Virus record (IMG/VR): IMGVR_UViG_3300017707_001811
Span: 101,573 to 165,572 of that record
From: a virus
Lineage: Duplodnaviria > Heunggongvirae > Uroviricota > Caudoviricetes
Strand: one strand, 5' to 3'
Length of the DNA stretch: 64,000 bases
How positions within the stretch are numbered: position 1 is the first letter of the stretch; each line of letters opens with the position of its first letter. The notes under the pieces are model-generated. The model worked only from the letters and a program-made list of their open reading frames with translations. It searched no databases and had not been told where the DNA came from. The position numbers were made by a program, and so were the translations under genes. Positions 17,885 to 50,866 of this stretch are shown here, piece by piece.

Positions 17885-17921
17885 ATTTTGTTTTTTAATG
17901 TTATTTTTATATCTTTGTATT

Positions 17922-18617
17922 ATGAAAATAACATTTATTTCCGATACACACAACAAACATAAGCAAGTCACTAGTTTATTACCTGGTGGGGATTTAATCA
18001 TACATGCTGGAGATATATCATCCATGGGGTATATCCACGAAGTTCAACAATTCTGTAAATGGTTTGAAGGATTAGATAACTATACAACTAAAGTTTTCAT
18101 TGCTGGAAACCATGATTTTGGTTTTCAGGATATTCCTAAAGAGATTAAAGAAATTGTTGATTTTTATGATGGAGTTAATTATTTACAAGACGATTTAATA
18201 CTACTTGGTGATAACTATAGTGAAATGGTTAAAATTTATGGTACTCCATGGCAACCTGAATTCCATAATTGGGCATTTAATTTACCAAGAAATGGATGGG
18301 AACTTGAACAAAAATGGAATGATATCCCGATAAATACGGATATATTAATTACTCACGGACCAGCCCAAGGATATTTGGACACCTCAGGACCACCTTGGAA
18401 TGAGCCCTTGTTAGGTTGCGAATTACTAGTTAAGAGAATTAAAGAAATAAAACCAAAAATTCACGTTTGTGGTCATATTCACGGAGGTTATGGTTATGTC
18501 TTTGATGGTGATACTCACTTCATTAATGCATCTGTACTAAATGAAAAATATGAATTTGTTAACAAACCACTTACAGTTGAGTGGGACCCTGTGACAAATG
18601 AACTTGATTTTCTATAA
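17922..18617 (+). CDS. calcineurin-like metallophosphoesterase
   Basis: Motifs ISDTHNKH, HAGDISSMG, AGNHDF and CGHIHGG. Start moved to the ATG 4 nt after the TATCTTTG -7 box at 17910-17917. Confidence 0.75.
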   Translation: MKITFISDTHNKHKQVTSLLPGGDLIIHAGDISSMGYIHEVQQFCKWFEGLDNYTTKVFIAGNHDFGFQDIPKEIKEIVDFYDGVNYLQDDLILLGDNYSEMVKIYGTPWQPEFHNWAFNLPRNGWELEQKWNDIPINTDILITHGPAQGYLDTSGPPWNEPLLGCELLVKRIKEIKPKIHVCGHIHGGYGYVFDGDTHFINASVLNEKYEFVNKPLTVEWDPVTNELDFL

Positions 18618-18620
18618 AAA

Positions 18621-18646
18621 ACTGACATAATGTCAGTTTTTTTATT
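18621..18646 (+). terminator. intrinsic terminator
   Basis: CTGACAT-AA-TGTCAG followed by TTTTTTT. Confidence 0.7.
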
Positions 18647-18730
18647 TTGGTACGAATTTTAACAATTTGGCACACGGAACTTGATTCCATTAAAATAAAC
18701 TTTTATATTTAAAAAAAATTATCAAAATTT

Positions 18731-20593
18731 ATGGGAAAAATAATAGGTATTGACTTGGGAACTACAAATTCTTGCGTAGCGGTTATGGAAGGTAGTGACC
18801 CTGTAGTAATTACAAACAGTGAAGGAAAAAGAACCACCCCTTCAATTGTCGCATTTGCTAATGGTGGTGAAAGGAAAGTTGGTGACCCTGCTAAACGACA
18901 GTCGGTTACTAACCCTGATAAAACAGTGTATTCAATTAAAAGATTTATGGGAACTAGCTTTGAAGAAAGTAAAAAAGAAGCTGGCAGAGTCCCATACAAA
19001 ATTATAAATGGTAACAATACACCTAAAGTTGAAATTGATAAAAGAAATTACTCACCACAAGAAATTTCGGCAATAGTACTCCAAAAGATGAAACAAACTG
19101 CTGAGGACTATCTTGGACAAGAAGTAACTGAGGCTGTAATTACGGTACCTGCATATTTTAATGACGCTCAAAGACAAGCGACAAAAGAAGCTGGTGAGAT
19201 TGCAGGACTTACAGTAAGAAGAATCATAAACGAACCAACTGCCGCGGCTCTTGCGTATGGTTTAGATAAGAAATCTAAAGATATGAAAGTTGTAGTATTT
19301 GACTGTGGTGGTGGTACTCATGATGTATCCGTACTTGAACTTGGAGACGGTGTATTTGAAGTACTCTCAACTGATGGAGACACTCATCTTGGTGGTGACG
19401 ACTTTGACCAAGCAATTATTGATTGGTTAGTTATGGAATTTAAAGATGAAAATGGATTGGATTTAAAACAAGACCCAATGGCACTTCAAAGACTTAGAGA
19501 AGGAGCTGAAAAGGCAAAAATTGAACTTTCATCATCACCGTCAACTGAAATTAATTTACCATATATCATGCCAGTTGATGGAATACCAAAACATTTAGTA
19601 CGTACTCTATCTCGAGCTAAATTTGAACAATTAGTTGACGAATTAGTTAAAAGAACAATTAAACCATGTGAGTCGGCTTTAAAAAATGCAGGACTTAAAG
19701 TTTCTGAAATTGATGAAATTATTTTAGTTGGAGGTACAACAAGAATTCCTGTTATTCAGGATGCGGTTAAGAAGTTCTTTGGAAAAGAACCGTCAAAAGG
19801 GGTTAACCCTGATGAAGTAGTCGCTTTAGGGGCGGCTATCCAAGGAGGAGTTTTAGCTGGTGATGTTAAAGATGTGCTACTTTTAGATGTCACACCACTA
19901 TCACTTGGTATTGAAACAATGGGTGGGGTTTTTACAAAGTTGATTGAGGCAAACACAACTATCCCAACCAAAAAGTCACAAGTATTCTCAACCGCTGTAG
20001 ATAATCAACCATCAGTTGAAATCCATGTATTACAGGGTGAAAGAGCTATGGCTAAAGACAACAGAACCATTGGTCGTTTCCATCTTGACGGATTACCACC
20101 AGCAATGAGAGGTATTCCACAGATTGAGGTAACATTTGATATTGATGCTAACGGTATTATTAATGTGTCGGCATTGGATAAAGGAACCAATAAACAACAA
20201 AATATTCGAATCGAATCTTCTTCAGGACTTTCAAAAGAAGAAATTGAAAAAATGAAAAAAGAGGCTGAAATGAATGCGGAATCTGATAAGAAAATTAAAG
20301 AAGAGACTGAAACAATTAACAAGGCAGATTCAGTAATTTTCCAAACCGAGAAGGCTTTAAAAGATTTAGAGGATAAAATTGGTGACGAAGATAAAAATAG
20401 AGTGATGGTTGCTTTGGAAGAATTAAAAACCGCACATCAGAATAGAGACGTAGAAAAGATTAATTCTTCTATTGATAATGTTAATAACATCTTTCAAGGA
20501 ATAAGTCAGAATATATATCAACAGATGTCAGACATTGTGAACGAAGATAAAGATGTTGAGGTAACCGATGTTGATTTTGAAGAAGTTAAGTAA
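18731..20593 (+). CDS. dnaK: chaperone DnaK (Hsp70)
   Basis: [14 protein letters not shown] and [12 protein letters not shown] ATPase motifs; full-length 620 aa Hsp70 architecture. Confidence 0.95.
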
Positions 20594-20603
20594 TTAATTA
20601 AAA

Positions 20604-20630
20604 ACCCATCTTCGGATGGGTTTTTTATTT
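20604..20630 (+). terminator. intrinsic terminator
   Basis: AAACCCATC-TTCG-GATGGGTTT followed by TTTT. Confidence 0.75.
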
Positions 20631-20650
20631 ATATTTGTAAAAAAAATAAA

Positions 20651-21220
20651 ATGAAGGTAATATTTTTAGACCACGATGGGGTTATTTGCTTATCAAATAA
20701 CTGGGGGTCACGATTTAAGAAACAAAAGAAATATAGAAAAAAATTGAGTCAATCAGTAATGACAATGCCTCTTGATGCTCGTTTTGATAACTTTGATAAG
20801 AAAGCGATTAAGGTGTTAAATCAAATCTTGGAACAGACTGGTGCTGAAATCGTTGTTTCTTCCGATTGGAGGATTTGGTGTTCAGTTGAGGAAATGGGTG
20901 ATTATTACGAAAGTCATGGAATTATCAAACGTCCAATTGATTTTACAGGTAATGTTATTGATGAATCAAAAGTTACATGGCACCGAAATTGGGATTTGGA
21001 AGGAACAAGGAGTTTGGAAATCCAAGGTTGGTTAAAAGAACACCCTGAGGTAACACAATGGGTAGCTATTGATGATTTGAATATGGGTAAAAAAGGTCTA
21101 CACTACTCAACGGAATTTGAACACGAATGGGGGTTAGATAATTTTGTACATACTCCTCTTAGAAATGAAGGTATAAAACAAGTTGGTATTAAAGAAAAAA
21201 TTTTATCATTTTTAAAATAA
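20651..21220 (+). CDS. HAD-superfamily hydrolase-like protein
   Basis: N-terminal FLDHDGVI (DxDG motif I). Confidence 0.4.
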   Translation: MKVIFLDHDGVICLSNNWGSRFKKQKKYRKKLSQSVMTMPLDARFDNFDKKAIKVLNQILEQTGAEIVVSSDWRIWCSVEEMGDYYESHGIIKRPIDFTGNVIDESKVTWHRNWDLEGTRSLEIQGWLKEHPEVTQWVAIDDLNMGKKGLHYSTEFEHEWGLDNFVHTPLRNEGIKQVGIKEKILSFLK

Positions 21221-21431
21221 AAACTTAAAAATATTGACAAATAAATAAAATTTTAATACTTTTGTTAAACAGTTATATATTTAATTAAAAACAATGAAAC
21301 AGAACTCGATACATAACATAAGTAATCTCCCGATGAATGTGGGCCAAGCTTGGTTTGCGATTAAAGGGCAAGATTGCCGTTGTTTAAGGGTTCTTAATGA
21401 GATGTAAGCGTATCATCAAATATATAAAAAA

Positions 21432-21590: not shown

Positions 21591-22148
21591 ATGAATATTA
21601 TGGAAATAACTAAATATGTTTTGATAGAAGTTGTAAACACTTCTAAAAGTAAATCAGAAATACTTAAAAAGCTTGAATTGAGTGATAATGGTAGAAATAG
21701 AAATCATTTAAATAAATTAATTTCTGAATTTGGTGTTAGTTTAGATATTTTGAAAAAAAATAAAAGAATTAATACTAAATTTATTGAAAAAGAATGCCCT
21801 GTTTGTGGTAAAATCTTTGAAACTAAAAAAACAGATAGAGAAAAAACAACTTGTTCTTATAGTTGTTCGAACAGTTATTTTAGAAGCGGAGAAAATAATC
21901 CAAATTGGAAAGATGATAGTTACAGAACAACATGTTTTTTATATCATGAGAAGAAATGCGTAGTGTGTGGTGAAGATAAAATAATTGACGTTCATCATTA
22001 TGATGAAAACAAAAAAAATAATAACAAAGAAAATTTAATTCCTCTTTGCCCAACTCATCACATGTATTGGCACTCAAGATATAAAAATTTAATTGAAAAA
22101 ACTGTTAACAACTATAGAGATGATTTCATTAAACGAGTAATGGGCTAA
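21591..22148 (+). CDS. HNH endonuclease
   Basis: CVVCGEDKIIDVHHYDENKK...NLIPLCPTHHMYWH. Confidence 0.7.
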   Translation: MNIMEITKYVLIEVVNTSKSKSEILKKLELSDNGRNRNHLNKLISEFGVSLDILKKNKRINTKFIEKECPVCGKIFETKKTDREKTTCSYSCSNSYFRSGENNPNWKDDSYRTTCFLYHEKKCVVCGEDKIIDVHHYDENKKNNNKENLIPLCPTHHMYWHSRYKNLIEKTVNNYRDDFIKRVMG

Positions 22149-22208
22149 TTGGTAAGCCGCCATATTTGGGATATGGACATCATGTGGGTTCGAGTCCCAC
22201 TTATTCGA
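22134..22208 (+). tRNA. tRNA-Pro(TGG), overlapping the HNH gene stop
   Basis: Acceptor CGAGTAA/TTATTCG, D stem GGCT/AGCC, anticodon arm CCATA-TTTGGGA-TATGG, T arm GTGGG-TTCGAGT-CCCAC. Confidence 0.75.
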
Positions 22209-22211
22209 CAC

Positions 22212-22236
22212 GCAGGTTCGAGTCCTGTCATCCCGA
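22212..22236 (+). pseudogene. 3' fragment of a disrupted tRNA (T arm, acceptor 3' strand and discriminator)
   Basis: GCAGG-TTCGAGT-CCTGT-CATCCCG-A; CATCCCG is perfectly complementary to the CGGGATG of the 5' fragment at 21508. Confidence 0.45.
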
Positions 22237-22284
22237 CGATTAAAATTATTTTACATTTTAATCAAAATTGAATATATTTGTACT

Positions 22285-22701
22285 ATGAAACATAGTATGG
22301 AAAATGGCGATAAGTCTAGAAATGGGAATCAATTAGAGTCCTATTTCATGGAAAAAACTGGATTAAAAAAAATTCAGAAGAAAGAAAAGCCTTTTTTTAC
22401 TAATAGCCATGGTAAAAAACAAATTATTGATTTTGATTTTTATGTTAAAATTAATGATGACGATGTTTACATTGATTTAACAACAACTTATAGAAGTGAT
22501 AGGTTAAAACAAAAAGCATATAATGCTTTAATGTATAAATCAAAGATTAACAAACCTTGTAAATTTTATATGGGTGTTGGTAAATTAGTTGAACATGGAA
22601 AGAAAAAAAATCCTGTGTTAATTGAAGGTATTGATGGAGTATTAACAGTTGAGGATTTAGTACAAATGATTTCTAAAAGGTCAGATACTCAAGTGGTTTA
22701 A
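22285..22701 (+). CDS. hypothetical protein
   Basis: ORF starting 4 nt after the TATATTTG -7 box at 22273-22280. Confidence 0.4.
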   Translation: MKHSMENGDKSRNGNQLESYFMEKTGLKKIQKKEKPFFTNSHGKKQIIDFDFYVKINDDDVYIDLTTTYRSDRLKQKAYNALMYKSKINKPCKFYMGVGKLVEHGKKKNPVLIEGIDGVLTVEDLVQMISKRSDTQVV

Positions 22702-22752
22702 GGGGCCTGTCTGCAAAATAGGTATTCGTCGGTTCGAATCCGACTCTGACCT
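22679..22752 (+). tRNA. tRNA-Cys(GCA)
   Basis: Acceptor GGTCAGA/TCTGACC, anticodon arm CCTGT-CTGCAAA-ATAGG, T arm GTCGG-TTCGAAT-CCGAC, discriminator T. Confidence 0.75.
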
Positions 22753-22827
22753 CAAAAAAAAATAAAAAATTTCTTTGAAATTAAAAAAATAGACGTATCT
22801 TTGTACTCACAAATAAACAATAAAAAT

Positions 22828-23577
22828 ATGATTACACTCCAAGAACTCCAATCAGTAGTACCTTCAGTATTCAACACTCAAAAAGCTCAGAAGCTTTCTG
22901 ACAAGTACACAGTTGTTCCAACCATTGACGTAGTAAATCAATTTATGCAAGCAGGGTGGGAAGTGTCAAGTGCAAAACAAGTAGGGTCAGGTGTATACGG
23001 CAAACACTCAGTTCGTCTCCGTAACTCTGAACTCCCAAAGGTAGGTGATTCTCTACTTGAGGCTATCATCACTAACTCTCACGATGGTCGTACCAAACTC
23101 CAAGTAGGAGCAGGGTTGTACCGATTGGTGTGTTCTAATGGTCTTGTAGTACCAATGCAAGAAATGGTTAACATTAACCAGCGTCACATGAACATTCAGA
23201 TGGATGAAGTGAATCAAATCACAGAGAAGTTCATTCAGATATCACCAATCATTGAACGTTCAGTTAATAAAATGATTGACGTTAAAATGGATACTGAAAA
23301 GAAAATTGATTTTGTAACCAAGGCGGTTGGAATTCGTTGGAAAAATACCGAAGACATCTCAAGTATGACTCTTGAGACGATTATCGAACCTCTTCGTGGT
23401 GATGATAACAACGATACACTTTGGCATACTTTCAATGTAGTACAGGAGAAGTTGATTAGAGGTGGATTTGTAAAATCACAAGGTAAAAATGTGAGAACAG
23501 TCAAAGGGATTACTTCCCTAAATATGGACACAATGATTAATACAAAATTGTGGGAATTGGCTGAAACATACATTTAA
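22828..23577 (+). CDS. hypothetical protein
   Basis: ORF; -7 box TATCTTTG at 22797-22804. Confidence 0.45.
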   Translation: MITLQELQSVVPSVFNTQKAQKLSDKYTVVPTIDVVNQFMQAGWEVSSAKQVGSGVYGKHSVRLRNSELPKVGDSLLEAIITNSHDGRTKLQVGAGLYRLVCSNGLVVPMQEMVNINQRHMNIQMDEVNQITEKFIQISPIIERSVNKMIDVKMDTEKKIDFVTKAVGIRWKNTEDISSMTLETIIEPLRGDDNNDTLWHTFNVVQEKLIRGGFVKSQGKNVRTVKGITSLNMDTMINTKLWELAETYI

Positions 23578-23600
23578 TCTTTATGATTGATGTTTACAAA

Positions 23601-23629
23601 TGGTACCTCAAAAAGGTACCATTTTTATT
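23601..23629 (+). terminator. intrinsic terminator
   Basis: GGTACC-TCAAAAA-GGTACC followed by ATTTTTATTT. Confidence 0.7.
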
Positions 23630-23630
23630 T

Positions 23631-23702
23631 GGTGATGTAGCTCAGAGGTGGAGCATCTGACTGTTAATCAGAGGGTCGGGATTTCGAAATTCCCCATCAC
23701 CG
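23631..23702 (+). tRNA. tRNA-Asn(GTT)
   Basis: Acceptor GGTGATG/CATCACC, D stem GCTC/GAGC, anticodon arm TCTGA-CTGTTAA-TCAGA. Confidence 0.8.
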
Positions 23703-23713
23703 CAAAATTTAAT

Positions 23714-23789
23714 GACTTCGTAGCTCAGCTGGTTTTAGAGCATCGCACTTTTAATGCGAGGGTCATGGGTTCGAGTCCCATCGGGGTCA
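23714..23789 (+). tRNA. tRNA-Lys(TTT)
   Basis: D stem GCTC/GAGC, anticodon arm TCGCA-CTTTTAA-TGCGA, T arm ATGGG-TTCGAGT-CCCAT. Confidence 0.8.
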
Positions 23790-23799
23790 CTTTTTATAC

Positions 23800-23883
23800 A
23801 CGTCAGTGGCTGAACGGCTTAGGCAACGGTCTCCAAAACCGTGAACATTATGTTCTACGTAGGTTCGAATCCTACCTGGCGTG
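23800..23883 (+). tRNA. class-II (long variable arm) tRNA with apparent anticodon CCA
   Basis: Acceptor ACGTCAG/CTGGCGT, Ser-like D region, anticodon arm ACGGT-CTCCAAA-ACCGT, variable hairpin GAACA-TTA-TGTTC, T arm GTAGG-TTCGAAT-CCTAC, discriminator G. Confidence 0.5.
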
Positions 23884-23890
23884 CTAATAT

Positions 23891-23965
23891 TCTCAGATAG
23901 CTCAGTTGGTTTAGAGCACTTGTCTGATACACAAGAGGTCGTGGGTTCGAGTCCCACTCTGAGAA
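23891..23965 (+). tRNA. tRNA-Ile(GAT)
   Basis: Acceptor TCTCAGA/TCTGAGA, anticodon arm CTTGT-CTGATAC-ACAAG, T arm GTGGG-TTCGAGT-CCCAC. Confidence 0.8.
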
Positions 23966-23974
23966 CTTAAAAAT

Positions 23975-24049
23975 GGGGGCGCATGTACCAAGGCTTGGCG
24001 AGAAACACTTGCAATGTTTCTGTGGAGGTTTCGATTATCTCCGTCTCCA
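23975..24049 (+). tRNA. tRNA-Ala(TGC)-like with aberrant D arm (possible pseudogene)
   Basis: Strong anticodon arm GAAACA-CTTGCAA-TGTTTC and T arm GAGGT-TTCGATT-ATCTC; acceptor GGGGGCG/CGTCTCC has 2 GU pairs; no regular D stem. Confidence 0.4.
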
Positions 24050-24057
24050 CTAAATTC

Positions 24058-24130
24058 GCTCCAGTAACTCAGTGGTGAGAGTGTCACTCTTATAAGGTGA
24101 AAGTCGTCAGTTCAATTCTGACCTGGAGTA
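24058..24130 (+). tRNA. tRNA-Ile(TAT)
   Basis: Acceptor GCTCCAG/CTGGAGT, D stem ACTC/GAGT, anticodon arm TCACT-CTTATAA-GGTGA, T arm GTCAG-TTCAATT-CTGAC. Confidence 0.65.
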
Positions 24131-24136
24131 CTATAT

Positions 24137-24210
24137 GGCCCCTTAGCTCAGTGGTAGAGAGCGATTGTATTACAAACAATAGGTCGTGTGTTCGATTCAC
24201 ACAGGGGCTA
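24137..24210 (+). tRNA. tRNA-Val(TAC)
   Basis: Anticodon arm ATTGT-ATTACAA-ACAAT, T arm GTGTG-TTCGATT-CACAC. Confidence 0.8.
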
Positions 24211-24216
24211 CTCTAA

Positions 24217-24288
24217 CCCGATGTAATTCAGTGGTAGAATACTTGATTCATATCCAAGCAGTCGGTGGTTCAATTCCACCCATCGGGA
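24217..24288 (+). tRNA. tRNA-Met(CAT) (elongator or Ile2-type)
   Basis: Acceptor CCCGATG/CATCGGG, D stem ATTC/GAAT, anticodon loop TTCATAT with A31-C39 mismatch, T arm GGTGG-TTCAATT-CCACC. Confidence 0.7.
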
Positions 24289-24343
24289 CAAAAAATATTT
24301 GGTGATACAATAATCTAATTGTATATTTGTACTTAAATTATAT

Positions 24344-24419
24344 GGGGTGATAGCGCAGGTGGTCAGTTCGCGTCGGTCTGAAAAACCGAAGATGTGTGGT
24401 TCAACTCCCACTCACCCCA
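24344..24419 (+). tRNA. tRNA-Phe(GAA)
   Basis: Acceptor GGGGTGA/TCACCCC, anticodon arm TCGGT-CTGAAAA-ACCGA; T stem only 4 bp with an 8-nt loop. Confidence 0.65.
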
Positions 24420-24576
24420 CGAGGTCCTGAATTAACAGGACAACCCCCACCTCCGATATGGCAGTCGGTCCGTTAATCCGATGAAGATGGGGTTTTTGAA
24501 AAGTGTCTCGGTAAGCTCTGACGAAAGTCAACTACGAGGTCTCGGTGGACAGAAGGCCTCTGATTCCACCCAAAAT

Positions 24577-24648
24577 GCGGGTATAGTATAATGGTTATTA
24601 TGATAGCCTTCCAAGCCTTAGATGTCAGTTCGATTCTGACTACCCGCT
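24577..24648 (+). pseudogene. tRNA-Gly(TCC)-like with unpaired anticodon stem
   Basis: Acceptor GCGGGTA/TACCCGC perfect, T arm GTCAG-TTCGATT-CTGAC, loop CTTCCAA as in T4-type tRNA-Gly, but flanking ATAGC/GCCTT do not pair (tandem AGCCTT-CCA-AGCCTT). Confidence 0.4.
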
Positions 24649-24655
24649 CTTTTTT

Positions 24656-24729
24656 GGGACATTAGTAGAGTTGGTCACAATGCCACCCTGTCACGGTGGA
24701 GGTCACGGGTTCGAATCCCGTATGTCCCG
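24656..24729 (+). tRNA. tRNA-Asp(GTC), CCA encoded
   Basis: Acceptor GGGACAT/ATGTCCC, anticodon arm CCACC-CTGTCAC-GGTGG, T arm ACGGG-TTCGAAT-CCCGT, then G-CCA. Confidence 0.75.
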
Positions 24730-24791
24730 CCAAAAGAGGAACGACTCAGTGTAGGAGCCTCAGGGGACTGCAGCCCCACTACACTCTATAT

Positions 24792-24862
24792 TGTCCTGTA
24801 GTGAAATGGCATCACTCGACTTTTTGGCAGTCGCATTTCTGGTTCGAGTCCAGACGGGATAA
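24792..24862 (+). tRNA. tRNA-Gln(TTG)
   Basis: Acceptor TGTCCTG/CGGGATA (2 GU), D stem GTGA/TCAC, anticodon arm CGACT-TTTTGGC-AGTCG, T arm TCTGG-TTCGAGT-CCAGA. Confidence 0.7.
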
Positions 24863-24878
24863 CTAAAAAATTAAAACT

Positions 24879-25274
24879 ATGTTAAAAGAAAGAATCAATG
24901 CCGACTTTATGTCCGCATTTAAAAACAAGGAAACTGAAAAGAAAAACTTTTTGGGTGTGGTTAAGGGTGAGATTCAGAATGAGGAAGGTCGCTCTGGTGT
25001 TGCTAACGATGATGTGGTTGTTGCGATTTTGAGAAAGATGGAAAAATCTTTAACTCAAACTGGAACACCTGAAGCATTAAAGGAATTGGAATATATCAAA
25101 CCATATCTTCCATCTCAAATGGGTTCAGATAAAATCCGTGAAATTATCTCAAACTATAAAACCAATGGTCTAACCAATGTCGGTCAGATTATGGGTGAGT
25201 TCAACAAGAACTTCAAAGGTCAAGCAGATAACAAAATCGTATCAGAAATCGCAAAAGAAGTTTTGGCAGGTTAA
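24879..25274 (+). CDS. GatB/YqeY-domain protein
   Basis: Co-linear with E. coli YqeY (MLKERINADFMSAFKNKE...AILRKMEKS...KPYLPSQM...NFKGQADNKIVSEIAKEVL). Confidence 0.75.
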   Translation: MLKERINADFMSAFKNKETEKKNFLGVVKGEIQNEEGRSGVANDDVVVAILRKMEKSLTQTGTPEALKELEYIKPYLPSQMGSDKIREIISNYKTNGLTNVGQIMGEFNKNFKGQADNKIVSEIAKEVLAG

Positions 25275-25297
25275 AAAATCTGCCATACTTTTGTATT

Positions 25298-25720
25298 ATG
25301 GAAAAAGAATTTGTCACATATGAGATTGGTTTAGAACTCAAGAATCTTGGGTTTAACGAACGTTGTTATGGATGTTTCAGTCATTTGGACAACAAGGAGT
25401 TATGGACAAGTAGGGTATACACCAACGGAGTATCTGAAAATATTGCGGCACCAATCTTCTCACAGGTATTCGGATGGTTTGAAGATAATTATTCATATTT
25501 TGTGGATATTAGAACTGACACCACACCAAATGAGATTTTGGGATTTGACTATACGATTAAGAGTTGGAAGTTTCCACCAATGTATTTTGATTTCTTCAAT
25601 GATAAGAGAGAAGGAAACATTGAGGTCATCAAGAAGATGATTAAAATGGCGAATAAAGAAAAACAAAAGGAGGCTCTTATTGATTTAATTAATTTGGATA
25701 ATGACGATAAAGATAAATAA
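25298..25720 (+). CDS. hypothetical protein
   Basis: ORF starting 4 nt after the TACTTTTG -7 box at 25286-25293. Confidence 0.4.
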   Translation: MEKEFVTYEIGLELKNLGFNERCYGCFSHLDNKELWTSRVYTNGVSENIAAPIFSQVFGWFEDNYSYFVDIRTDTTPNEILGFDYTIKSWKFPPMYFDFFNDKREGNIEVIKKMIKMANKEKQKEALIDLINLDNDDKDK

Positions 25721-26024
25721 TATGACACAGAAACAACAAGACGCAATTGATAATATAATGGACAACTTCAAGTTTGAACAAGTCCGAAAAGTAATGGAAC
25801 TATTGGATTGGGAATGGGCGGGAACTGAAGAAGGTGTTCCAACCATTCCTGAATTGAGACGAGAAGCAAGACGACTATTAAAAATGTCGTTTGAAGAAAA
25901 AACAAACGTATCAACAGGTGGATTCCACGTAATGTACGAATCAAATGATGACGGAGAGTTTATTCAATTGATGTTTGCGGTTGAAGAATGGTATGAAGAA
26001 ATAGAAGAATATTTGGAAGAATAA
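25701..26024 (+). CDS. hypothetical acidic protein
   Basis: ORF only. Confidence 0.4.
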   Translation: MTIKINNMTQKQQDAIDNIMDNFKFEQVRKVMELLDWEWAGTEEGVPTIPELRREARRLLKMSFEEKTNVSTGGFHVMYESNDDGEFIQLMFAVEEWYEEIEEYLEE

Positions 26025-26035
26025 GAAAGTTGTTA

Positions 26036-26043
26036 TATCTTTG
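26036..26043 (+). promoter_or_regulatory. TATCTTTG -7 box with no ORF downstream; likely promoter of an ncRNA starting near 26050
   Basis: Same motif as upstream of more than 15 genes; followed by 500 nt without an ORF. Confidence 0.5.
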
Positions 26044-26047
26044 TTGA

Positions 26048-26439
26048 AGTTCTTTGAAATTAGGAAATTAAAGTGTTTAACGGCAGATTTTGATATAAGT
26101 GTTAGAGAGGATAAAAATCTATGAAACTTATAAGACAATTAGGAAGAGTTATCTTTACGTTGGGAGCTAAAAGTGGAGATAATAAAGTATCTATAACCGT
26201 TAAACCTTTTAAAATATTGATAGTGGTTTTCCCCACTCAACGGATGTCGACAATCTAGATTGGAATCGGAATTCATCACCATCAGCCGAGGCCTCGTAAA
26301 ACTACGATTAAGCTGTTAAGATTGGGACGAGACGGGTATCCCAACACTGTCAACAATATTGTGTTGTTCCCTTGAGAAAGGAAGATTGCGGAGATGAACA
26401 GTAAGCTCACAACACAGAGGACTTCTCATCCTCAAACAT
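26048..26439 (+). ncRNA. structured ORF-free RNA region upstream of the tRNA-mimic element
   Basis: Numerous short perfect hairpins (CGAGGCCTCG, GGGA..TCCC, CAACA-ATATTG-TGTTG, GAGGA-CTTCTCA-TCCTC); no ORF. Confidence 0.4.
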
Positions 26440-26537
26440 AGTCAGGTGGCGGAATTGGCGCCAAAGTTAAGGTGTGTTAAGGCGTGACCCGTTGAGGACC
26501 ATCCAATGACTTACAGGTTCGAATCCTGTCCTGACTT
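26440..26537 (+). ncRNA. tRNA-mimic/Y-RNA-like element copy 1 (98 nt)
   Basis: 5' AGTCAGG-TGGCGGAA...ACAGG-TTCGAAT-CCTGT-CCTGACT 3': perfect 7-bp terminal helix plus canonical T arm, but no resolvable anticodon arm. Confidence 0.5.
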
Positions 26538-26552
26538 CTAAATTTAAAAGAT

Positions 26553-26777
26553 ATGAATAGAACACTTGAAGAAATTGTGAAAACACCAGAATTAACTGAC
26601 GGTACTGAAGTCACATTCAGAGTTGTAAATGAAACTTTCAATGGTAAAATTGTAGGTAAATCATCCGATGGATTGATGCCGTATTACATCGTTGAATGTA
26701 CTGATGGGTCATTTCCAAATGAAATGTATAAGTATAAATTCTTATCTTTACCACTTAGTGAAATATTTGTTAAGTGA
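26553..26777 (+). CDS. hypothetical small protein
   Basis: 74-aa ORF between the two tRNA-mimic copies. Confidence 0.3.
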   Translation: MNRTLEEIVKTPELTDGTEVTFRVVNETFNGKIVGKSSDGLMPYYIVECTDGSFPNEMYKYKFLSLPLSEIFVK

Positions 26778-26785
26778 TAAAAAAT

Positions 26786-26866
26786 AGTCAGGTGGCGGAA
26801 ATAGTATCTCTATAATATACTTGATGAGGTATGAGGTTGACTCAGTATTAGTTCCTATCCTGACTA
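26786..26866 (+). ncRNA. tRNA-mimic/Y-RNA-like element copy 2 (81 nt, no T arm)
   Basis: Same 17-nt 5' end ATAGTCAGGTGGCGGAA and 3' end CCTATCCTGACT as copy 1, with an unrelated interior. Confidence 0.4.
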
Positions 26867-27078
26867 CAATGAGTAAGAGGTACTCAGAGTCTTCGAATCA
26901 AGACTTAAAGAATGATTCCGCAGAATGTCTACGGCGTGAGTGGGACATCGTGGGATAAAGGGATAGACACATTCCCTCCCAGTAGTGTTGGATGTTTTTA
27001 ACGGGGATGCCCAGCAGGTTTTTAAGAAATAGAAAACCGATATGACTACTCATTTGTAATCTCAGGATGGGGAAAGCA

Positions 27079-27142
27079 AGGGCTCCCTTAATAGCTGTGG
27101 CTGACCACGGGCGTTGCTTGTTCCGTTATATAGGGGGCGAAG
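27079..27142 (+). repeat. conserved RNA-like module, copy B
   Basis: GGCTCCCTTAATAGCTGTGGCTGACC, then 25 nt, then AGGGGGCGAAGA; paralogous to 13551-13620. Confidence 0.6.
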
Positions 27143-27191
27143 ACGGAACTTTTTAGTAATTATTTATAGGTATTTATAAATAAAATAGAAT

Positions 27192-27650
27192 ATGAAAATT
27201 ACTAAAATTGGAAAAAAAGGTTTGGAATTAATTAAATCTTTTGAAGGTTTAAAATTAAAACCTTATTTGTGTGATGCGGGAGTGCCAACAATTGGTTTTG
27301 GAAATACTTTTTATGAAAATGGTAAAAAGGTCACATTAAATGACCAAGTGATTACTGAACAAAGAGCAGTTGAATTACTTGAATATTCATTATTAAAGTT
27401 TGAACAATATGTTGATTCATATTGTCGTGATGATATAAACCAAAATCAATTCGATGCATTAGTTAGTTTTTGTTATAATTTAGGACCTGTTAATTTAAAA
27501 AATAGTACTTTATTGAAAAAAGTTAATAAAAACCCTAATGATATAACAATTAGAAATGAGTTTATGAAGTGGAATAAAGCAGGCGGAAGAGCTTTGAAAG
27601 GATTAACTAAAAGAAGAACCGCTGAAGCTGATTTATACTTCAGTAAATAG
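27192..27650 (+). CDS. endolysin, GH24 lysozyme (T4 e / lambda R family)
   Basis: GLELIKSFEGLKLKPYLCDAGVPTIGFGNT catalytic region. Confidence 0.85.
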   Translation: MKITKIGKKGLELIKSFEGLKLKPYLCDAGVPTIGFGNTFYENGKKVTLNDQVITEQRAVELLEYSLLKFEQYVDSYCRDDINQNQFDALVSFCYNLGPVNLKNSTLLKKVNKNPNDITIRNEFMKWNKAGGRALKGLTKRRTAEADLYFSK

Positions 27651-40751: not shown

Positions 40752-41345
40752 ATGAAAAATATCCTAATACTTTTAATTTCTTTATTTACATTTTCAGTAA
40801 ATGCTCAAGTTATTGATTACAATAACTTTGACAACAAATTACTTGAACGTTTAGTTTTTGAAGAACTTAACAAATATCGAGATTCTTTAGGTGTTGTAGA
40901 TTTGTTATGGTCAAAAGTAATGTATGAGCAAGTTAGCTGTAAACAAACTGAAATACTTGCTAAAGGTAGTACTTTATATCACCCTGACTTAGATACTTTG
41001 TTTACTGATGAATTCAGAGTAGGGTTATCTAAAGAATCTCAAAAACTAACTGGTATCAAGAGTCAATTTAATTGTGGACCATCTTCTGTAACTACTTTAA
41101 GTGAAAACGGGTTTTCATGGGAATTAAATAAGGTTACTTACCAAGAAATGGCAAAGATTGCAATAATTGCTTGGGACAAATCATATATGCACAAGTGTAA
41201 TCAAAAGTACCCATATGTTGTTGATGGAGGAGGAAAAGGATTTGTGTCAATATCCGCAAGAGTAAATAAGTCAAAAACTAAAATATTTATAACTTGTAAT
41301 TTTTCACAAGTTCACAAAGAAAAAAAAACCACTACTAGTCAGTAG
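40752..41345 (+). CDS. secreted hypothetical protein
   Basis: Start moved to the ATG 4 nt after the TATATTTG box (40740-40747); signal peptide MKNILILLISLFTFSVNAQ. Confidence 0.4.
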   Translation: MKNILILLISLFTFSVNAQVIDYNNFDNKLLERLVFEELNKYRDSLGVVDLLWSKVMYEQVSCKQTEILAKGSTLYHPDLDTLFTDEFRVGLSKESQKLTGIKSQFNCGPSSVTTLSENGFSWELNKVTYQEMAKIAIIAWDKSYMHKCNQKYPYVVDGGGKGFVSISARVNKSKTKIFITCNFSQVHKEKKTTTSQ

Positions 41346-42642
41346 TGGTTTTTACTATATCTTTTTTCTCAAACTTAGGTAATTTAATATCTAAACGTCT
41401 ATTGTTAATTGTCTGATTAAAATCTTTAACTTCAGGCCATTTTTTACCCTTGTCAAATCTATCAGTTTCACCTAAAGGGTTTGCAACAAATGTTCCTGAA
41501 AGTTCTGGTAATGATTTATCTAATTCTTGAATTATTGCTTTAGCTCTTTCTTCAGATAAACATTTATTGTATTCATTTCTGGGTCTACCACCAGGTTTTC
41601 TACAAGCTGGTAAAGTAGTTGTTGTTTTACTATTTGAATCCGACATAATTCCCTTTGGGTCCTCATCAATAGAAGATGATGTGGTCACATAAGCTTTTTG
41701 AGACTTTAAAAAGTTAATATATTCACCATATATTTTATCGTCGTATTTAGTTTTAACATTTTTAATTTCTTTAATAAAGTTTTCTAATTCAAGTTTACCG
41801 TTATCTGTTAAATCTGTTTTATCAAATTTAAATGGGTCAGTCATTTCAGCCTTAATTTCAATAGAAACAACCATAGGAGGTTTTATCTCAGGAGCATTAA
41901 TTACACCAGTTCCTTCAGGACCTTTCATGGCGTTAATACCAATTCCGTAATTATTTACGAATTCTTTATATTTCATATCTGAATAATTAGTACCTGTAGA
42001 TACCGTACGACTTCCAGTATTTCTAAAACTTATACTACTTCTAACCCAAGATGTGGAATTATAATCTTCTTTACTAGGTATAAATAATTCATTTAAACTA
42101 ACATTAGGGTTATTAATTTTTTCATATGGTTTGTCTAAAGTTTGAATTATTGGATATATTTGAAATATTGTAGGAATTCCATTTTCTAACGCTAAAGCAA
42201 AACCAAGATAATTTGGACGTAAGTCTTGCCCAAATTTTACATTTTGTAAAATCAATCCCAAAATTGCAGGATTACCCTCGGCCGCTCCACTTCTATACTG
42301 GTCTCTTGTAATAGTAATTACTTTATTATCAGTAAATTGTCCTGTAGTTAAATTAAAATCAACGTCTAAAATATTACCACTTAAAGTCTCCTCTTGGTGC
42401 ATTTTTTCATATTTTTGTTTTCCAGTTCTTCTACCATCTATTACTTCATCTACTACATCTAAAACTTCTAAATTTCCATTTGTAACATTAATGTAATATC
42501 CTCCTAACTTAAATAAAGTAGGTGTAGATTCTTCAGGTTTATCACCTGTAGTAAAATCCTGCTCAACCAAAATACCCTTGGTTAAATACATTGATAATAT
42601 TTGTGATTTTTCTTGTTCCGTAACTAAAAATCTTTTACTCAT
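41335..42642 (-). CDS. protein with C-terminal OmpA-like peptidoglycan-binding domain and a conserved N-terminal module
   Basis: C-terminus LSEERAKAIIQEL...NPLGETDRFD...NNRRLDIKL; N-terminus MSKRFLVTEQEKSQI shared with 35015 and 53841(-). Confidence 0.5.
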   Translation of the reverse strand: MSKRFLVTEQEKSQILSMYLTKGILVEQDFTTGDKPEESTPTLFKLGGYYINVTNGNLEVLDVVDEVIDGRRTGKQKYEKMHQEETLSGNILDVDFNLTTGQFTDNKVITITRDQYRSGAAEGNPAILGLILQNVKFGQDLRPNYLGFALALENGIPTIFQIYPIIQTLDKPYEKINNPNVSLNELFIPSKEDYNSTSWVRSSISFRNTGSRTVSTGTNYSDMKYKEFVNNYGIGINAMKGPEGTGVINAPEIKPPMVVSIEIKAEMTDPFKFDKTDLTDNGKLELENFIKEIKNVKTKYDDKIYGEYINFLKSQKAYVTTSSSIDEDPKGIMSDSNSKTTTTLPACRKPGGRPRNEYNKCLSEERAKAIIQELDKSLPELSGTFVANPLGETDRFDKGKKWPEVKDFNQTINNRRLDIKLPKFEKKDIVKTTTD

Positions 42643-43667: not shown

Positions 43668-43742
43668 GAAGAAGTAGCTCAGACGGTAGAGCATAGGGTT
43701 AGAAATCCCTTGTGCCGCGAGGTTCGATTCCCGCCTTCTTCA
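43668..43742 (+). tRNA. tRNA with irregular anticodon arm (4-bp stem with 8-nt loop TTAGAAAT, or 3-bp stem with anticodon AGA) and a bulged T stem
   Basis: Acceptor GAAGAAG/CTTCTTC perfect, D stem GCTC/GAGC, T loop TTCGATT, discriminator A. Confidence 0.45.
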
Positions 43743-45061: not shown

Positions 45062-45077
45062 TTTATATATTTGTAAA

Positions 45078-45533
45078 ATGAAATACAATATATACTTAGA
45101 TGATGTTCGTACCCCAAAAGATAAAAATTGGGTAGTTGTACGAAATTATGATGAATTTGTTAATAGAGTTACTGAAATAGGTTTAAATAATATTGATACT
45201 ATTTCTTTGGACCATGACCTTGGAGATACTGCAATGAATGAATATTTCAACAATGTAAGCCCAAACTACACTTTAAACTATGAGAATATTAAAGAAAAAA
45301 CTGGTTTGGATTGTGCTAAATGGTTGGTTAATTATTTCTATGATACTAATCCTGAGTGGATTGAAATGAATAGAATAGTTAAGAGAGCCGATAAAATAAA
45401 CTTTCCTCAGGTTTATACTCATTCTGCAAATCCGATTGGTTCTGCAAATATTATGGGTTACATAAATAATTTTTTAATGAATGAAGCTCAAACTCAGACA
45501 TGTGTTAGGGTTCAAATTCCACATAACGTATGA
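45078..45533 (+). CDS. hypothetical protein
   Basis: Start 4 nt after the TATATTTG box (45066-45073). Confidence 0.4.
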   Translation: MKYNIYLDDVRTPKDKNWVVVRNYDEFVNRVTEIGLNNIDTISLDHDLGDTAMNEYFNNVSPNYTLNYENIKEKTGLDCAKWLVNYFYDTNPEWIEMNRIVKRADKINFPQVYTHSANPIGSANIMGYINNFLMNEAQTQTCVRVQIPHNV

Positions 45534-46653: not shown

Positions 46654-46654
46654 T

Positions 46655-47176
46655 ATGAATTGGTACATTGTTAGAAGTCAGGCTAATAGAGAAAGAAAAG
46701 TTAGCGAGAGACTAATCAAAGAAGGAGAGAACGGAGACCTAAAAGGTGTCTTAGGGAGAGTTATAGTCCCGACAGAAAAAGTATTTTCAATCAAAGAAGG
46801 TAAAAAAGTACAAAGAGAAAAAGTAATATTTCCTGGGTATATTTTTGTTGAATGTTCGGCTATCGGAGAATTGAAACAAGTTGTTAAATCAATAAATGGT
46901 GCCACTGGTTTACTCACTGATAGAACAGGTGAAATCCAAATTGTTAAAGAACAAGAAGTAAATAGAATGATTGGGTTACATGAAGAAAATAAAAATAAAA
47001 ATTTTGCAGATATTTTCTCAGTTGGAGATGAAGTGACAATAACTGAAGGACCCTTTGCGTCATTTAAAGGAGCAATTGATTTTATTGATAAAGATAAAGG
47101 TAAGTTGAAAGTTAACGTATCAATCTTTGGAAGGATAACTGTGGTAGAATTAAACGAATTTCAAGTAAAAAAATGA
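46655..47176 (+). CDS. nusG: NusG-like transcription antitermination factor (NGN plus KOW)
   Basis: WYIVRSQANRERKV...VIVPTEKV...FPGYIFVE...GDEVTITEGPFASFKG...VSIFGRITVVEL. Confidence 0.8.
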   Translation: MNWYIVRSQANRERKVSERLIKEGENGDLKGVLGRVIVPTEKVFSIKEGKKVQREKVIFPGYIFVECSAIGELKQVVKSINGATGLLTDRTGEIQIVKEQEVNRMIGLHEENKNKNFADIFSVGDEVTITEGPFASFKGAIDFIDKDKGKLKVNVSIFGRITVVELNEFQVKK

Positions 47177-48235: not shown

Positions 48236-48967
48236 ATGTTCAAGTTCTATGAGGTCGGAGGTAAAATAAGAGACGAAATCCTTGGTTTAAAATCAAAGGA
48301 TGTTGATTACGTTGCGGTACCAAGTGACGAGTTAATTAATGATATTAGCTCACCTCATTCTATGTTTGGAATACTCGAAGGATTTTTAAAAGAAGAAGGT
48401 TTTGAAATATTTTTAATTACACCTGATTGTTTTACGATTAGAGCCAAGTTTCCCCAAGGGCATACATACGAAGGTGTTGCTGATTTTGTAATGGCGAGAA
48501 AGGAATTGGGATATATTCCTGGCACAAGAACTCCATTGGTTAAACCAGGAACTCTATACGATGATTTGGAAAGACGTGACTTTACATTAAACGCATTGGC
48601 TAAAGATTCAGATGGAAACATTATTGATTTCTTTGGTGGTGAGGATGATTTGAAACATGGTATGTTAAGAACACCACTAGATTGTAAAGTAACTTTTGAT
48701 GATGACCCTTTACGTATTTTGAGAGCAATTAGGTTTTCAATTACTAAGGGATTTACTATGTCTAGAAAGATAGTTGAAGAAATATACATCTACGACTACG
48801 ACAATAAAATGTCTGTAGTATCTACAGAAAGAATCAGAGAAGAGCTCCTCAAGTGTTTTAAACATGACACGATTAAAACATTAAACACTTTGGAGGAGTT
48901 TTACAGATTAAGAGATTATATCTTTAAAAACAATATTTTGTGGTTAAAACCAACTTTAGAAAAATGA
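48236..48967 (+). CDS. tRNA nucleotidyltransferase (CCA-adding, polymerase-beta-type) head domain
   Basis: GGKIRDEILGLKSKDVDYV and ERRDFTLNALA motifs. Confidence 0.75.
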   Translation: MFKFYEVGGKIRDEILGLKSKDVDYVAVPSDELINDISSPHSMFGILEGFLKEEGFEIFLITPDCFTIRAKFPQGHTYEGVADFVMARKELGYIPGTRTPLVKPGTLYDDLERRDFTLNALAKDSDGNIIDFFGGEDDLKHGMLRTPLDCKVTFDDDPLRILRAIRFSITKGFTMSRKIVEEIYIYDYDNKMSVVSTERIREELLKCFKHDTIKTLNTLEEFYRLRDYIFKNNILWLKPTLEK

Positions 48968-49257
48968 ATATGAAGAAAGCAAGTAATATAAAATTAATAA
49001 TGTTTTTAATTTTATTAATATTTTTATCGTTAGGTGTCTTTTATTTTTTTAAAACCGTAACAATTGGTGAAAAAATAACAATTGAATATCAAAAAACAAC
49101 AGTGGTTTCTATTAAAAGAAAACCACCAAAAAACGTACATGAAGAAATTAATTTGTGGTATGAAATAGAACTATCTAATGGTAATAAGTTCGTATCATCA
49201 CATAGATATTTAGTTGGTGATACAGTATATTATGAAATCTATAAAATAAATAAGTGA
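48940..49257 (+). CDS. small membrane protein
   Basis: N-terminal TM helix. Confidence 0.35.
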   Translation: MVKTNFRKMNMKKASNIKLIMFLILLIFLSLGVFYFFKTVTIGEKITIEYQKTTVVSIKRKPPKNVHEEINLWYEIELSNGNKFVSSHRYLVGDTVYYEIYKINK

Positions 49258-49499
49258 TGGAAGTAAGTATGGACGGACTAAGAAACCATTTGTTAAGAAG
49301 TTATAACTCTTTGGTTTCTAAATTAAATAAACGAATTGACGGTGACGACATTGTTGATTTGGAAATTTACGATATTGAAAGAGAACTTGAGGGTATTAGA
49401 AGTTGTATTGTTACACTAGCTTTTACATCACTTGAAGGTGAAGGAGGGTGGAAATCAATGGATGACAGTACTCACTTTGAGCAATTTAATCCTGAATAA
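49254..49499 (+). CDS. hypothetical protein
   Basis: ORF only. Confidence 0.3.
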   Translation: MMEVSMDGLRNHLLRSYNSLVSKLNKRIDGDDIVDLEIYDIERELEGIRSCIVTLAFTSLEGEGGWKSMDDSTHFEQFNPE

Positions 49500-49517
49500 G
49501 AGTTGGAAGATTAAAAA

Positions 49518-49841
49518 TTGTATCAGAAATTGCAAAAGAAGTTTTGGCGGGAGAGTAATCCCGCCGTATCTTTGTTAAATATAAAAAACACTCAAATGAC
49601 TAGCAACGAATTTAATAAGAAATATAAAGAATATCTTGGTGAAAGACACTATGGATTGGATATTGAGGTCCCCCAACTAACACTTTGGTTAGACGAAAAA
49701 TTCCAAGAATTCATCAAAATTCCTGAATTTAAATACTATCAAATCAAAACAAAATTTGGTTATGGTAGATTCTATTGTGATGGGGTACCTCAAGAACAAA
49801 TAACTGAGGTTGAGGTAAAAATTAGAGAACTTTGTAAATAA
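49518..49841 (+). CDS. hypothetical protein
   Basis: ORF only. Confidence 0.35.
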   Translation: MYQKLQKKFWRESNPAVSLLNIKNTQMTSNEFNKKYKEYLGERHYGLDIEVPQLTLWLDEKFQEFIKIPEFKYYQIKTKFGYGRFYCDGVPQEQITEVEVKIRELCK

Positions 49842-49855
49842 AAAAGAGGTATATT

Positions 49856-50149
49856 ATGTCAGGAGGACATTTTGATTATAATCAATACAAAATCGGATAT
49901 ATTGCCGATGAAGTAGAGCAACTTATTGAAAGAAACGGTAAGGAAATACCAAAACAATATCGTGATGATTGGTCGGGTACCAATTACTACGAATATCCAC
50001 CTGAAGTAATTGAGAAATTCAAAGAAGGTGTTGAGATTCTTCGTAAAGCTCAAATTTACGCTCAAAGGATTGATTGGTTGGTTTCAGGTGATGATGGTAA
50101 TGAATCTTTTTTGAGAAGACTGAAAGAAGATTTGGAAAAATTGAAATAG
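49856..50149 (+). CDS. hypothetical protein
   Basis: ORF only. Confidence 0.35.
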   Translation: MSGGHFDYNQYKIGYIADEVEQLIERNGKEIPKQYRDDWSGTNYYEYPPEVIEKFKEGVEILRKAQIYAQRIDWLVSGDDGNESFLRRLKEDLEKLK

Positions 50150-50167
50150 TTTTTGTATATTTGCAAT

Positions 50168-50866
50168 ATGATTCTAAAGATAGAAAAAGATATAAAAGGA
50201 ATTTTCCCAAAAATTTGGATATGTTCTGACCCCCACTACAACCACAAAAATATTTGTAGAGGTGTTACGAATTGGAGAACCTTGGATGGAGAAGTTCCCG
50301 AAGAACAAACTCGCGATTTCCCAACCATTGAGAAAATGAACGAGGCAATTCTGAATGGGATTAACTGGAATGTTGGACAAGATGACATTTTAATTTGTCT
50401 TGGAGACTGGTCTTTTGGTGGGTTTGAGTCTATTAAACAATTCAGAGATAGAATTGTTTGTAAAAATGTACACTTAGTACTTGGTAATCACGACCACCAC
50501 ATTGAACGTAACAGAGAGAACATTAAGGCTTTATTTAGTTCAGTTTCAGAATACCTGAGAGTTGTTGTGATGGAACCGATTAAAAAAGATGTTACTAAAC
50601 GACATGAGTTTGTATGTATGCACTACCCAATACAAAGTTGGGACGGTTTAAATAAAGGAGTTTATCATCTACACGGACATGTACACTTACCAAATGAACG
50701 AAAGTTTGGTCGTGGTAAGAAAATGGACGTTGGTTTTGACGGACATCCTGAATTCAGACCGTACAATCTACTAAAAGAAGTTGTGCCGATGTTAAGTAAG
50801 AGAGAAATGTTGTCGGATATGTCAAATGACCATCACCTTGAAAGATTATTAAACAGTGATAAATAA
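50168..50866 (+). CDS. calcineurin-like metallophosphoesterase
   Basis: ICSDPHYNH, LGDWSFGG, LGNHDHH, HGHVH motifs; start 4 nt after the TATATTTG box (50156-50163). Confidence 0.75.
   Translation: MILKIEKDIKGIFPKIWICSDPHYNHKNICRGVTNWRTLDGEVPEEQTRDFPTIEKMNEAILNGINWNVGQDDILICLGDWSFGGFESIKQFRDRIVCKNVHLVLGNHDHHIERNRENIKALFSSVSEYLRVVVMEPIKKDVTKRHEFVCMHYPIQSWDGLNKGVYHLHGHVHLPNERKFGRGKKMDVGFDGHPEFRPYNLLKEVVPMLSKREMLSDMSNDHHLERLLNSDK

Follow-up and report, generated by a model that had tools for sequence, protein, structure and literature searches.

A Bacteroidota-type promoter box set four nucleotides before the start codon predicts leaderless genes in an uncultured jumbo phage

Introduction

Chromosomal leaderless mRNAs are known from Flavobacterium and Bacteroides, i.e. 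from a phylum that makes no use of Shine-Dalgarno sequences, and their promoters carry the box TAnnTTTG at positions -12 to -5, with the start codon at or next to the first transcribed nucleotide (+1). The share of such messages is low: 5.5% of mRNAs are leaderless in F. psychrophilum (PMC9723704), 13% have leaders of 10 nucleotides (nt) or less in F. johnsoniae (PMC6847099), and 3.7% have leaders shorter than 10 nt in the start-site map of B. thetaiotaomicron. The present work deals with the same box in a stretch of 64,000 nt (positions 101,573 to 165,572 of the IMG/VR record IMGVR_UViG_3300017707_001811, class Caudoviricetes), the whole of which is referred to as the window. Here the motif TAnnTTTG-NNNN-ATG, in which exactly four nucleotides separate the box from the ATG (spacing N4; other spacings are named likewise), precedes nine of about 18 recognisable box-proximal genes. 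The phage family to which the window belongs is fixed on N4, whereas the Flavobacteriales loci are spread over N4 to N6; the likely host of the phage also belongs to the phylum without Shine-Dalgarno use.

Among phages, the cI mRNA transcribed from the PRM promoter of phage lambda and other classic messages start at the A of the AUG, the promoter abutting the start codon. These cases concern single regulatory genes with sigma-70 promoters in Proteobacteria, whereas here many auxiliary genes with Bacteroidota-type promoters are involved, and this throughout a family. The same inference, a promoter box about 10 nt 5' of the start codon leaving no room for a leader, has been used to predict leaderless genes in Actinobacteria, Deinococcus-Thermus and archaea, although the box used there is Pribnow-like and not TAnnTTTG (PMC3160421). 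With that Pribnow-like box, Zheng et al. (2011; PMC3160421) found leaderless genes in one of 37 Bacteroidetes/Chlorobi genomes and themselves noted under-counting. No description of leaderless genes or transcripts in Bacteroidota phages was found in the literature.

Box-to-ATG spacing in the window

An exact search of the window returned 11 matches to TAnnTTTG-N4-ATG, all of them on the + strand, while 100 dinucleotide shuffles gave 2.04 +/- 1.38 matches, with a maximum of 6 and no shuffle reaching 11. Nine of the matches precede real open reading frames (ORFs). Eight of these had been listed in the first-pass annotation of this DNA, which considered the fixed spacing too regular for chance; each of the eight positions reads exactly as described there, and the numbers given here agree with that judgement. 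The matches are as follows (aa, amino acids).

15302 to 15316, + strand: N4 site, box TAAATTTG, spacer TCCT; probable leaderless promoter of ORF 15314-15571 (85 aa), absent from the earlier list
17910 to 17924, + strand: N4 site, box TATCTTTG, spacer TATT; promoter and start of a metallophosphoesterase gene (17922-18617)
22273 to 22287, + strand: N4 site, box TATATTTG, spacer TACT; ORF 22285-22701 (138 aa), flanked by tRNA-Pro and tRNA-Cys
25286 to 25300, + strand: N4 site, box TACTTTTG, spacer TATT; ORF 25298-25720 (140 aa)
30474 to 30488, + strand: N4 site, box TATCTTTG, spacer TCTT; HD-type phosphohydrolase gene 30486-31031 (phrog_990)
35832 to 35846, + strand: N4 site, box TATCTTTG, spacer TGGT; ORF 35844-36326 (160 aa, phrog_3754)
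40740 to 40754, + strand: N4 site, box TATATTTG, spacer TCAT; ORF 40752-41345 (197 aa) with an N-terminal signal-peptide-like sequence
45066 to 45080, + strand: N4 site, box TATATTTG, spacer TAAA; cREC_REC gene 45078-45533
50156 to 50170, + strand: N4 site, box TATATTTG, spacer CAAT; phosphoesterase gene 50168-50866 (phrog_547)
11022 to 11036, + strand: chance match within gene 10712-11086; the ATG opens 9 codons only
46840 to 46854, + strand: chance match within the NusG-like gene 46655-47176; the ATG opens 11 codons only

The last two, being intragenic and followed by such short ORFs, account for the roughly two matches expected by chance. When the gap from each + strand box to the next ATG opening an ORF of at least 50 aa was measured, nine boxes fell at N4, one at N5 and none at N6 to N10, with one or two at each spacing from N11 to N24 and beyond. 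The binomial probability of at least nine of 33 boxes sharing one spacing is 2e-9, and no comparable spacing peak was seen on the minus strand of the window.

Besides the nine N4 genes, the box was recognised in the following positions.

Within 20630 to 53800, + strand: leadered class, nine boxes identical in type, with A-rich leaders of 13-24 nt, at 20630 (N13), 22796 (N24), 29554 (N16), 31270 (N21), 40294 (N16), 42769 (N22), 48213 (N15), 49567 (N21) and 53793 (N14)
37622 to 37636, + strand: near-consensus member, TATAATTG, spacer AATT; ORF 37634-37987
32467 to 32482, + strand: ambiguous N5 site, TATTTTTG, spacer CTTAT; ORF 32480-32800; the box doubles as the T-tail of a hairpin at 32446-32465

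The leadered set of the earlier annotation was correct apart from one position that was off by one (22797 instead of 22796), and the boxes at 20630 and 49567 can be added to it. The near-consensus member coincides with a perfect sigma-70 consensus (TTGACA-17-TATAAT, 12/12) at 37599-37627, 6 nt before the ATG at 37634, and in this DNA one can equally read TATAATTG-N4-ATG; a rough calculation by hand puts the number of perfect matches of this kind expected by chance at about 0.2. A terminator (37573-37591) lies immediately 5' of this promoter region (37599-37636).

Promoter architecture and predicted start of transcription

In F. johnsoniae the invariant nucleotides of the box are T-12, A-11, T-8, T-7, T-6 and G-5, and the gap between box and start of transcription is 4 or 5 nt (PMC6847099); the box of F. 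psychrophilum likewise occupies -12 to -5 (PMC9723704). Since transcription begins 4-5 nt past the G of a box so placed, a spacing of N4 makes the A of the ATG the +1 nucleotide. On the maps of these two species, the N4 mRNAs would be perfectly leaderless, with a predicted 5' end coinciding with the A of the ATG. The first-pass annotation had assumed a distance of about 7 nt from the box to the start of transcription; this proved imprecise, and the conclusion drawn from it stands in a sharper form.

Further conserved positions emerged from a non-redundant set of 72 N4 sites drawn from the window and related phages. T makes up 69-86% at -36 to -34 and G 36-50% at -33/-32, an A-tract occupies the spacer (A 57-71% from -24 to -19), T is found at -10 and at -4, and T also prevails at -1 (61%), directly before the A at +1. 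G is scarce at the two n positions of the box (7% and 0%), which agrees with the refinement to TAHHTTTG proposed in PMC6847099. By eye, the nine window sites share this layout: the box is exact in 9/9, TTTG is found at 19-21 nt in five and ATTG in two (at 20 and 24 nt), the sites at 22273 and 50156 being less clear. In the case of 15302 the -33 TTTG lies at 15279-15282, 19 nt 5' of the box, and the distance is the same at 40740. The site at 25286 has a hairpin (25264-25285) placed between the -33 TTTG and the box, and the promoter at 30474 lies entirely within the 3' end of the preceding gene, which ends at 30493. The N4 boxes are parts of complete promoters and not isolated octamers. The leadered promoters have the same box and the same -33 element; however, A occurs at -3 in 56% of leadered genes versus 28% of N4 sites, and the A-rich stretch before the ATG is missing from the latter.

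These data bear on the view that the motif is no promoter at all, but a translation-level or protein-binding signal, a set of terminator tails or a product of AT-rich chance. At a GC content of about 30%, T-rich octamers are indeed common in the window (133 TAnnTTTG boxes versus 107 expected), and at 25264-25285 and 32446-32465 hairpins abut the box. The excess of N4 matches (11 versus 2.0), their confinement to the coding strand, the accompanying -33 TTTG at a fixed 19-20 nt with its A-tract spacer, the lack of a hairpin at most sites and the presence of an identical box followed by an A-rich leader before other genes nevertheless make such an origin very improbable.

The start codons of the N4 genes

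A leaderless reading depends on the N4 ATG, for which several lines of evidence are available. In the 17922 protein the alignment to the Pfam profile Metallophos starts at residue 1, and the orthologs of this protein all begin ATGAAAATnACnTT regardless of the upstream sequence, which argues for a start at 17922 and not at 17898. Similarly, the cREC_REC profile begins at residue 3 of the 45078 protein, hence the start is placed at 45078 and not at 44985. The N4 ATG is also the point from which the coding sequences of the 50168 and 35844 orthologs are conserved. A start at a later Met would delete the DxH metal-binding motif. Upstream alternatives at 17898, 30435, 44985 and a TTG at 50153 were ruled out by domain boundaries, ortholog starts and overlap with upstream genes. 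In the family of the window, distinct N4 sites opening at least 60 codons have ATG 147 times, TTG once and GTG never. In E. coli, leaderless mRNA needs AUG, and GUG and UUG function poorly. By profile and ortholog comparison, the codon at the predicted +1 is the true start codon.

Spacing among orthologs

The upstream regions of six genes were compared among related phages, with 48236, which has a leader in the window, as a control.

50168 (N4 in the window), 52 distinct ortholog upstream regions: 39 exact N4, four more N4 with one mismatch, N7 twice, N22 once, N32 once, the rest with no exact box
35844 (N4), 9 distinct regions: N4 nine times
48236 (N15, control), 45 regions: N4 13 times, N5 once, N15-28 12 times, none 19 times, N6-14 never
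45078 (N4), 49 regions: N4 six times, N29-41 three times, none 40 times
17922 (N4), 43 regions: N4 three times, N8 once, N14-37 seven times, N43 seven times (probably a coincidence of coding sequence), none 25 times
30486 (N4), 53 regions: N4 nine times, N7 once, N11-25 12 times, N42 once, none 30 times

In the 50168 set the N32 locus (L075) is also counted among the four one-mismatch boxes. The orthologs of this gene, 60-95% identical in amino acid sequence, have about 20 different spacer tetramers at a constant spacing, and those of 35844 (71-91% identity) have both the exact N4 arrangement and the -33 TTTG in 9/9 distinct upstream regions. Pooled over the six sets, 79 boxes lie at N4, five at N5-10 and 35 at N11-37; in the non-redundant set of the phages, nine at N6-10 stand against 28 at N11-15 (p=0.003). 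Orthologs without a promoter are A-rich directly before the ATG (e.g. ...aataaaATG). This distribution suggests that two geometries are viable for a promoter adjacent to its gene, one in which the leader is missing and one in which it measures about 11-15 nt or more. Two-state spacing, the restriction to ATG and the lack of an A-rich context are together the expected signature of leaderless initiation.

The arrangement of the genes could also be explained otherwise: the boxes might be real promoters, with the N4 genes translated mainly from read-through polycistronic transcripts and the N4 spacing arising incidentally as promoters that serve downstream genes are fitted into very small gaps. 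The intergenic gaps are just -8 to 47 nt for 8/9 N4 genes versus 48-96 nt for leadered genes, terminators lie upstream of few N4 promoters, and six of the N4 genes head or sit within multi-gene runs. The other three are single-gene units of promoter, ORF and terminator: 15314-15571, with a terminator-like hairpin at 15625-15650 downstream, 17922-18617, with a terminator at 18616-18642, and 40752-41345, with a two-way terminator at 41324-41353. Each of these promoters can serve only that gene. Of the nine, these three alone have the flanking promoter and terminator that a self-contained, 'moron'-like phage cassette would require. Moreover, compaction would permit N2, N3 and N6-10 as well, yet these spacings are nearly absent (five in the six ortholog sets, against 79 at N4), the codon at N4 is almost solely ATG, and the A-rich context for internal initiation is missing. 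Read-through as the main source of translation is thus quite unlikely.

Comparison with related phages and with the host lineage

Nearly all ORFs of the window lie on one strand, and it harbours about 25 tRNA genes, a full-length GOLLD RNA and genes coding for DnaK, a Ro60-like protein, RNA ligase, a CCA-adding-like enzyme, HAD_SAK_2, cREC_REC, two metallophosphoesterases, NusG-like and Tad6-like proteins, ThyA and a protein with a CHU_C type IX secretion domain. A megablast search with 20 kb of the window found no near-identical phage records. Proteins with 60-95% identity are encoded by hundreds of IMG/VR contigs, which reach 373 kb in length, and to judge by the isolate labels of the matching metagenome-assembled genomes (MAGs; e.g. 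ME/Mendota, RE, ZE, Jr), part of the related sequence, at least, is of lake origin. Among isolates, Flavobacterium phage immuto and Cellulophaga phages phi17:2 and phi4:1 come closest, and the DnaK of freshwater Flavobacteriales MAGs shows 78% identity to that of the window. On the grounds of the DnaK identity and of the nearest isolates, the window is part of an uncultured jumbo phage, the host of which is most likely a freshwater member of the Flavobacteriales; a Bacteroidota host fits, if indirectly, with the DnaK match, the CHU_C domain and the Flavobacterium and Cellulophaga phage isolates.

In the loci of Flavobacteriales genomes (L258-L337; 1.26 Mb), 13 of 164 non-redundant sites are N4, 12 are N5 and 8 are N6, while the phage family, with one count per protein family, has 36 N4, 12 N5 and 2 N6 among 198. 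Compared with the 13/164 of Flavobacteriales, N4 alone is enriched both in the phage family (36/198, p=0.005) and in the window (9/27, p=0.0009), and the N4 peak of the phages is the sharper one (N4 versus N5+6, p=0.006). The pooled share of N4-6, however, shows no difference between phages and Flavobacteriales loci (25% versus 20%, p=0.26), so that a strong enrichment over the host is only partly true. The N4-N6 peak in the Flavobacteriales loci implies that the start-site studies of cultured species may understate how common leaderless or near-leaderless genes are in freshwater Flavobacteriales.

Two of the nearest isolates, Flavobacterium phage vB_FspM_immuto and Cellulophaga phage phi17:2, are large Flavobacteriia phages related to the window through the phosphoesterase (50% and 41% identity, respectively). 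There were no N4 sites in 40 kb of immuto and one in 50 kb of phi17:2, at gp015, with no spike in either. N4 as a general trait of Flavobacteriia phages is rejected by these counts.

A common layout or a separate class of genes

The best explanation, to which we assign a probability of roughly 0.78, is that the N4 sites are ordinary promoters of the Bacteroidota sigma-A type, set so that transcription by the host polymerase starts at the A of the ATG, with leaderless translation of the message. The promoter (-33 TTTG, 19-20 nt, -7 box TAnnTTTG) would position RNA polymerase there, the polymerase, presumably that of the host, would produce mRNAs starting with 5'-AUG, and ribosomes would probably initiate on these by the leaderless route. 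With this layout, 16-47 nt of intergenic DNA are enough for a full promoter, which may also extend into the preceding gene. Genes drift between leaderless and leadered states, so that N4 does not mark a gene-specific regulon. Leaderless transcripts from Bacteroidota sigma-A promoters, as proposed in the first-pass annotation, are supported by all the indirect tests applied (geometry, architecture, ortholog spacing, bimodality, ATG-only starts and the absence of an A-rich leader context).

Several points weigh against this explanation. The position of +1 is carried over from maps of two Flavobacterium species in culture. No terminator precedes most N4 promoters, hence the N4 genes may also sit on read-through transcripts, and at 25286 and 32467, with hairpins directly before the box, its T-rich sequence might also act as the tail of a terminator. 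Phage factors may transcribe the window in part, a NusG-like gene being present. Finally, gene starts were defined crudely, from ORFs, and the leaderless share obtained in the counts varies with that definition.

The annotation had gone further and suggested a distinct class of temporally or translationally regulated genes. One form of such a regulon would be a set of genes favoured after host takeover because leaderless initiation escapes some block, possibly aided by an initiator-like tRNA-Met of the phage. Such a tRNA is encoded at 14741-14813, the N4 genes of the window code for auxiliary enzymes and not for structural proteins, and the phage family is fixed on N4 more sharply than host-like genomes are (N4:N5+6, 36:14 versus 13:20). 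On the other hand, the pooled N4-6 share does not differ from the host-like baseline, N4 and leadered genes have the box and the -33 element in common and are interspersed on the same strand, and orthologs of one gene switch among N4, N15-28 and no promoter in related phages. A duplicated element does the same: the two copies of the 74-nt repeat D8 (25233-25306 and 49514-49587, 76% identity), each comprising a gene tail (...IAKEVLAG), a GC-rich hairpin and the -7 box, are N4 at 25286 and N21 at 49567. With the state switching among relatives, the D8 pair and the shared elements, there is no evidence of a fixed regulon or of a separate temporal class, the claim of temporal regulation is unsupported, and a regulon of this kind is unlikely. 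A translational difference between leaderless and leadered messages is inherent in the layout.

A related idea is that this freshwater phage lineage uses exact +1-AUG messages as a deliberate strategy, by which auxiliary genes would go on being translated independently of leaders while leader-dependent translation of the host is impaired during takeover; its own initiator-type tRNA-Met, located beside the GOLLD RNA, could help in this. We regard it as improbable.

An origin of the N4 promoters as copies of one mobile cassette was considered and rejected: apart from the D8 pair, they have only the consensus in common (repeat D5). The hairpins of D8 and the one at 32446-32465 abut the box, and these arrangements may represent overlapping terminator-promoter units.

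Other elements of the window

The GOLLD RNA (RF02032, 316.8 bits) was located at 14302-14717, and the tRNA-Met gene (14741-14813) follows directly. This tRNA has a 1:72 mismatch, an A11:U24 pair, the anticodon loop CUCAUAA and 2/3 G:C pairs in the anticodon stem, and by eye, in comparison with E. coli tRNA-fMet, it looks like an initiator type. A promoter-like module of 60 nt (TTGAC, about 20 nt, TAAGTTTG/TAAATTTG) occurs in five copies (13414-13789, 21215-21274, 36325-36416), three of them in tandem 5' of GOLLD and one 5' of the tRNA cluster 36599-37281. The segments 13730-13821 and 36325-36416 have 92 nt in common, including a downstream hairpin, TTCGGAAATGTCCGAA (repeats D2 and D6), so that the two may share a leader for non-coding RNA operons. 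Clusters of tRNA genes were found within 22134-28316, 36599-37281 and 43668-43742, along with uncalled T-arm-like segments at 26440-26537 (a sub-threshold tRNA match, possibly interrupted) and 27943-27976.

Downstream of the Ro60-like gene (33053-34678; TROVE and vWA domains) come a terminator hairpin and, at about 34714-34866, an element resembling a tRNA, with an acceptor-like stem CUCAGG...CCUGAGUACCA and a T arm GGAGGUUCGAAUCCUUC. This element, a candidate YrlA-like Y RNA, had no match in Rfam and was not called as a tRNA. Genes for RNA repair and for a chaperone (DnaK, HAD_SAK_2, cREC_REC, the CCA-adding-like nucleotidyltransferase and RNA ligase) are distributed over 18731-21220, 45078-45533, 48236-48967 and 54083-55237. 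Other genes include those for the NusG-like protein (46655-47176), a Tad6-like anti-Thoeris protein (56082-56813) and the CHU_C type IX secretion domain protein (28935-29510).

Conclusions

The N4 layout is real, its leaderless reading is well supported, and it extends to a phage family an arrangement known from the host lineage. No new mechanism is revealed by it: a known Flavobacteriales layout is used often and precisely by the phages, with a peak at N4 that is sharper than the N4-6 peak of the Flavobacteriales loci, the pooled shares not differing. For uncultured Bacteroidota phages and their hosts, TTTG-N19/20-TAnnTTTG-N4-ATG, with N6-N10 not tolerated, would offer a rule for fixing start codons and transcription units from sequence alone. 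The number of leaderless genes in Flavobacteriales may exceed the counts of older Pribnow-box surveys, and genes whose orthologs are leaderless, leadered or operonic by turns would provide a natural experiment on the gain and loss of promoters and on the minimum length of a leader in a phylum without Shine-Dalgarno pairing.

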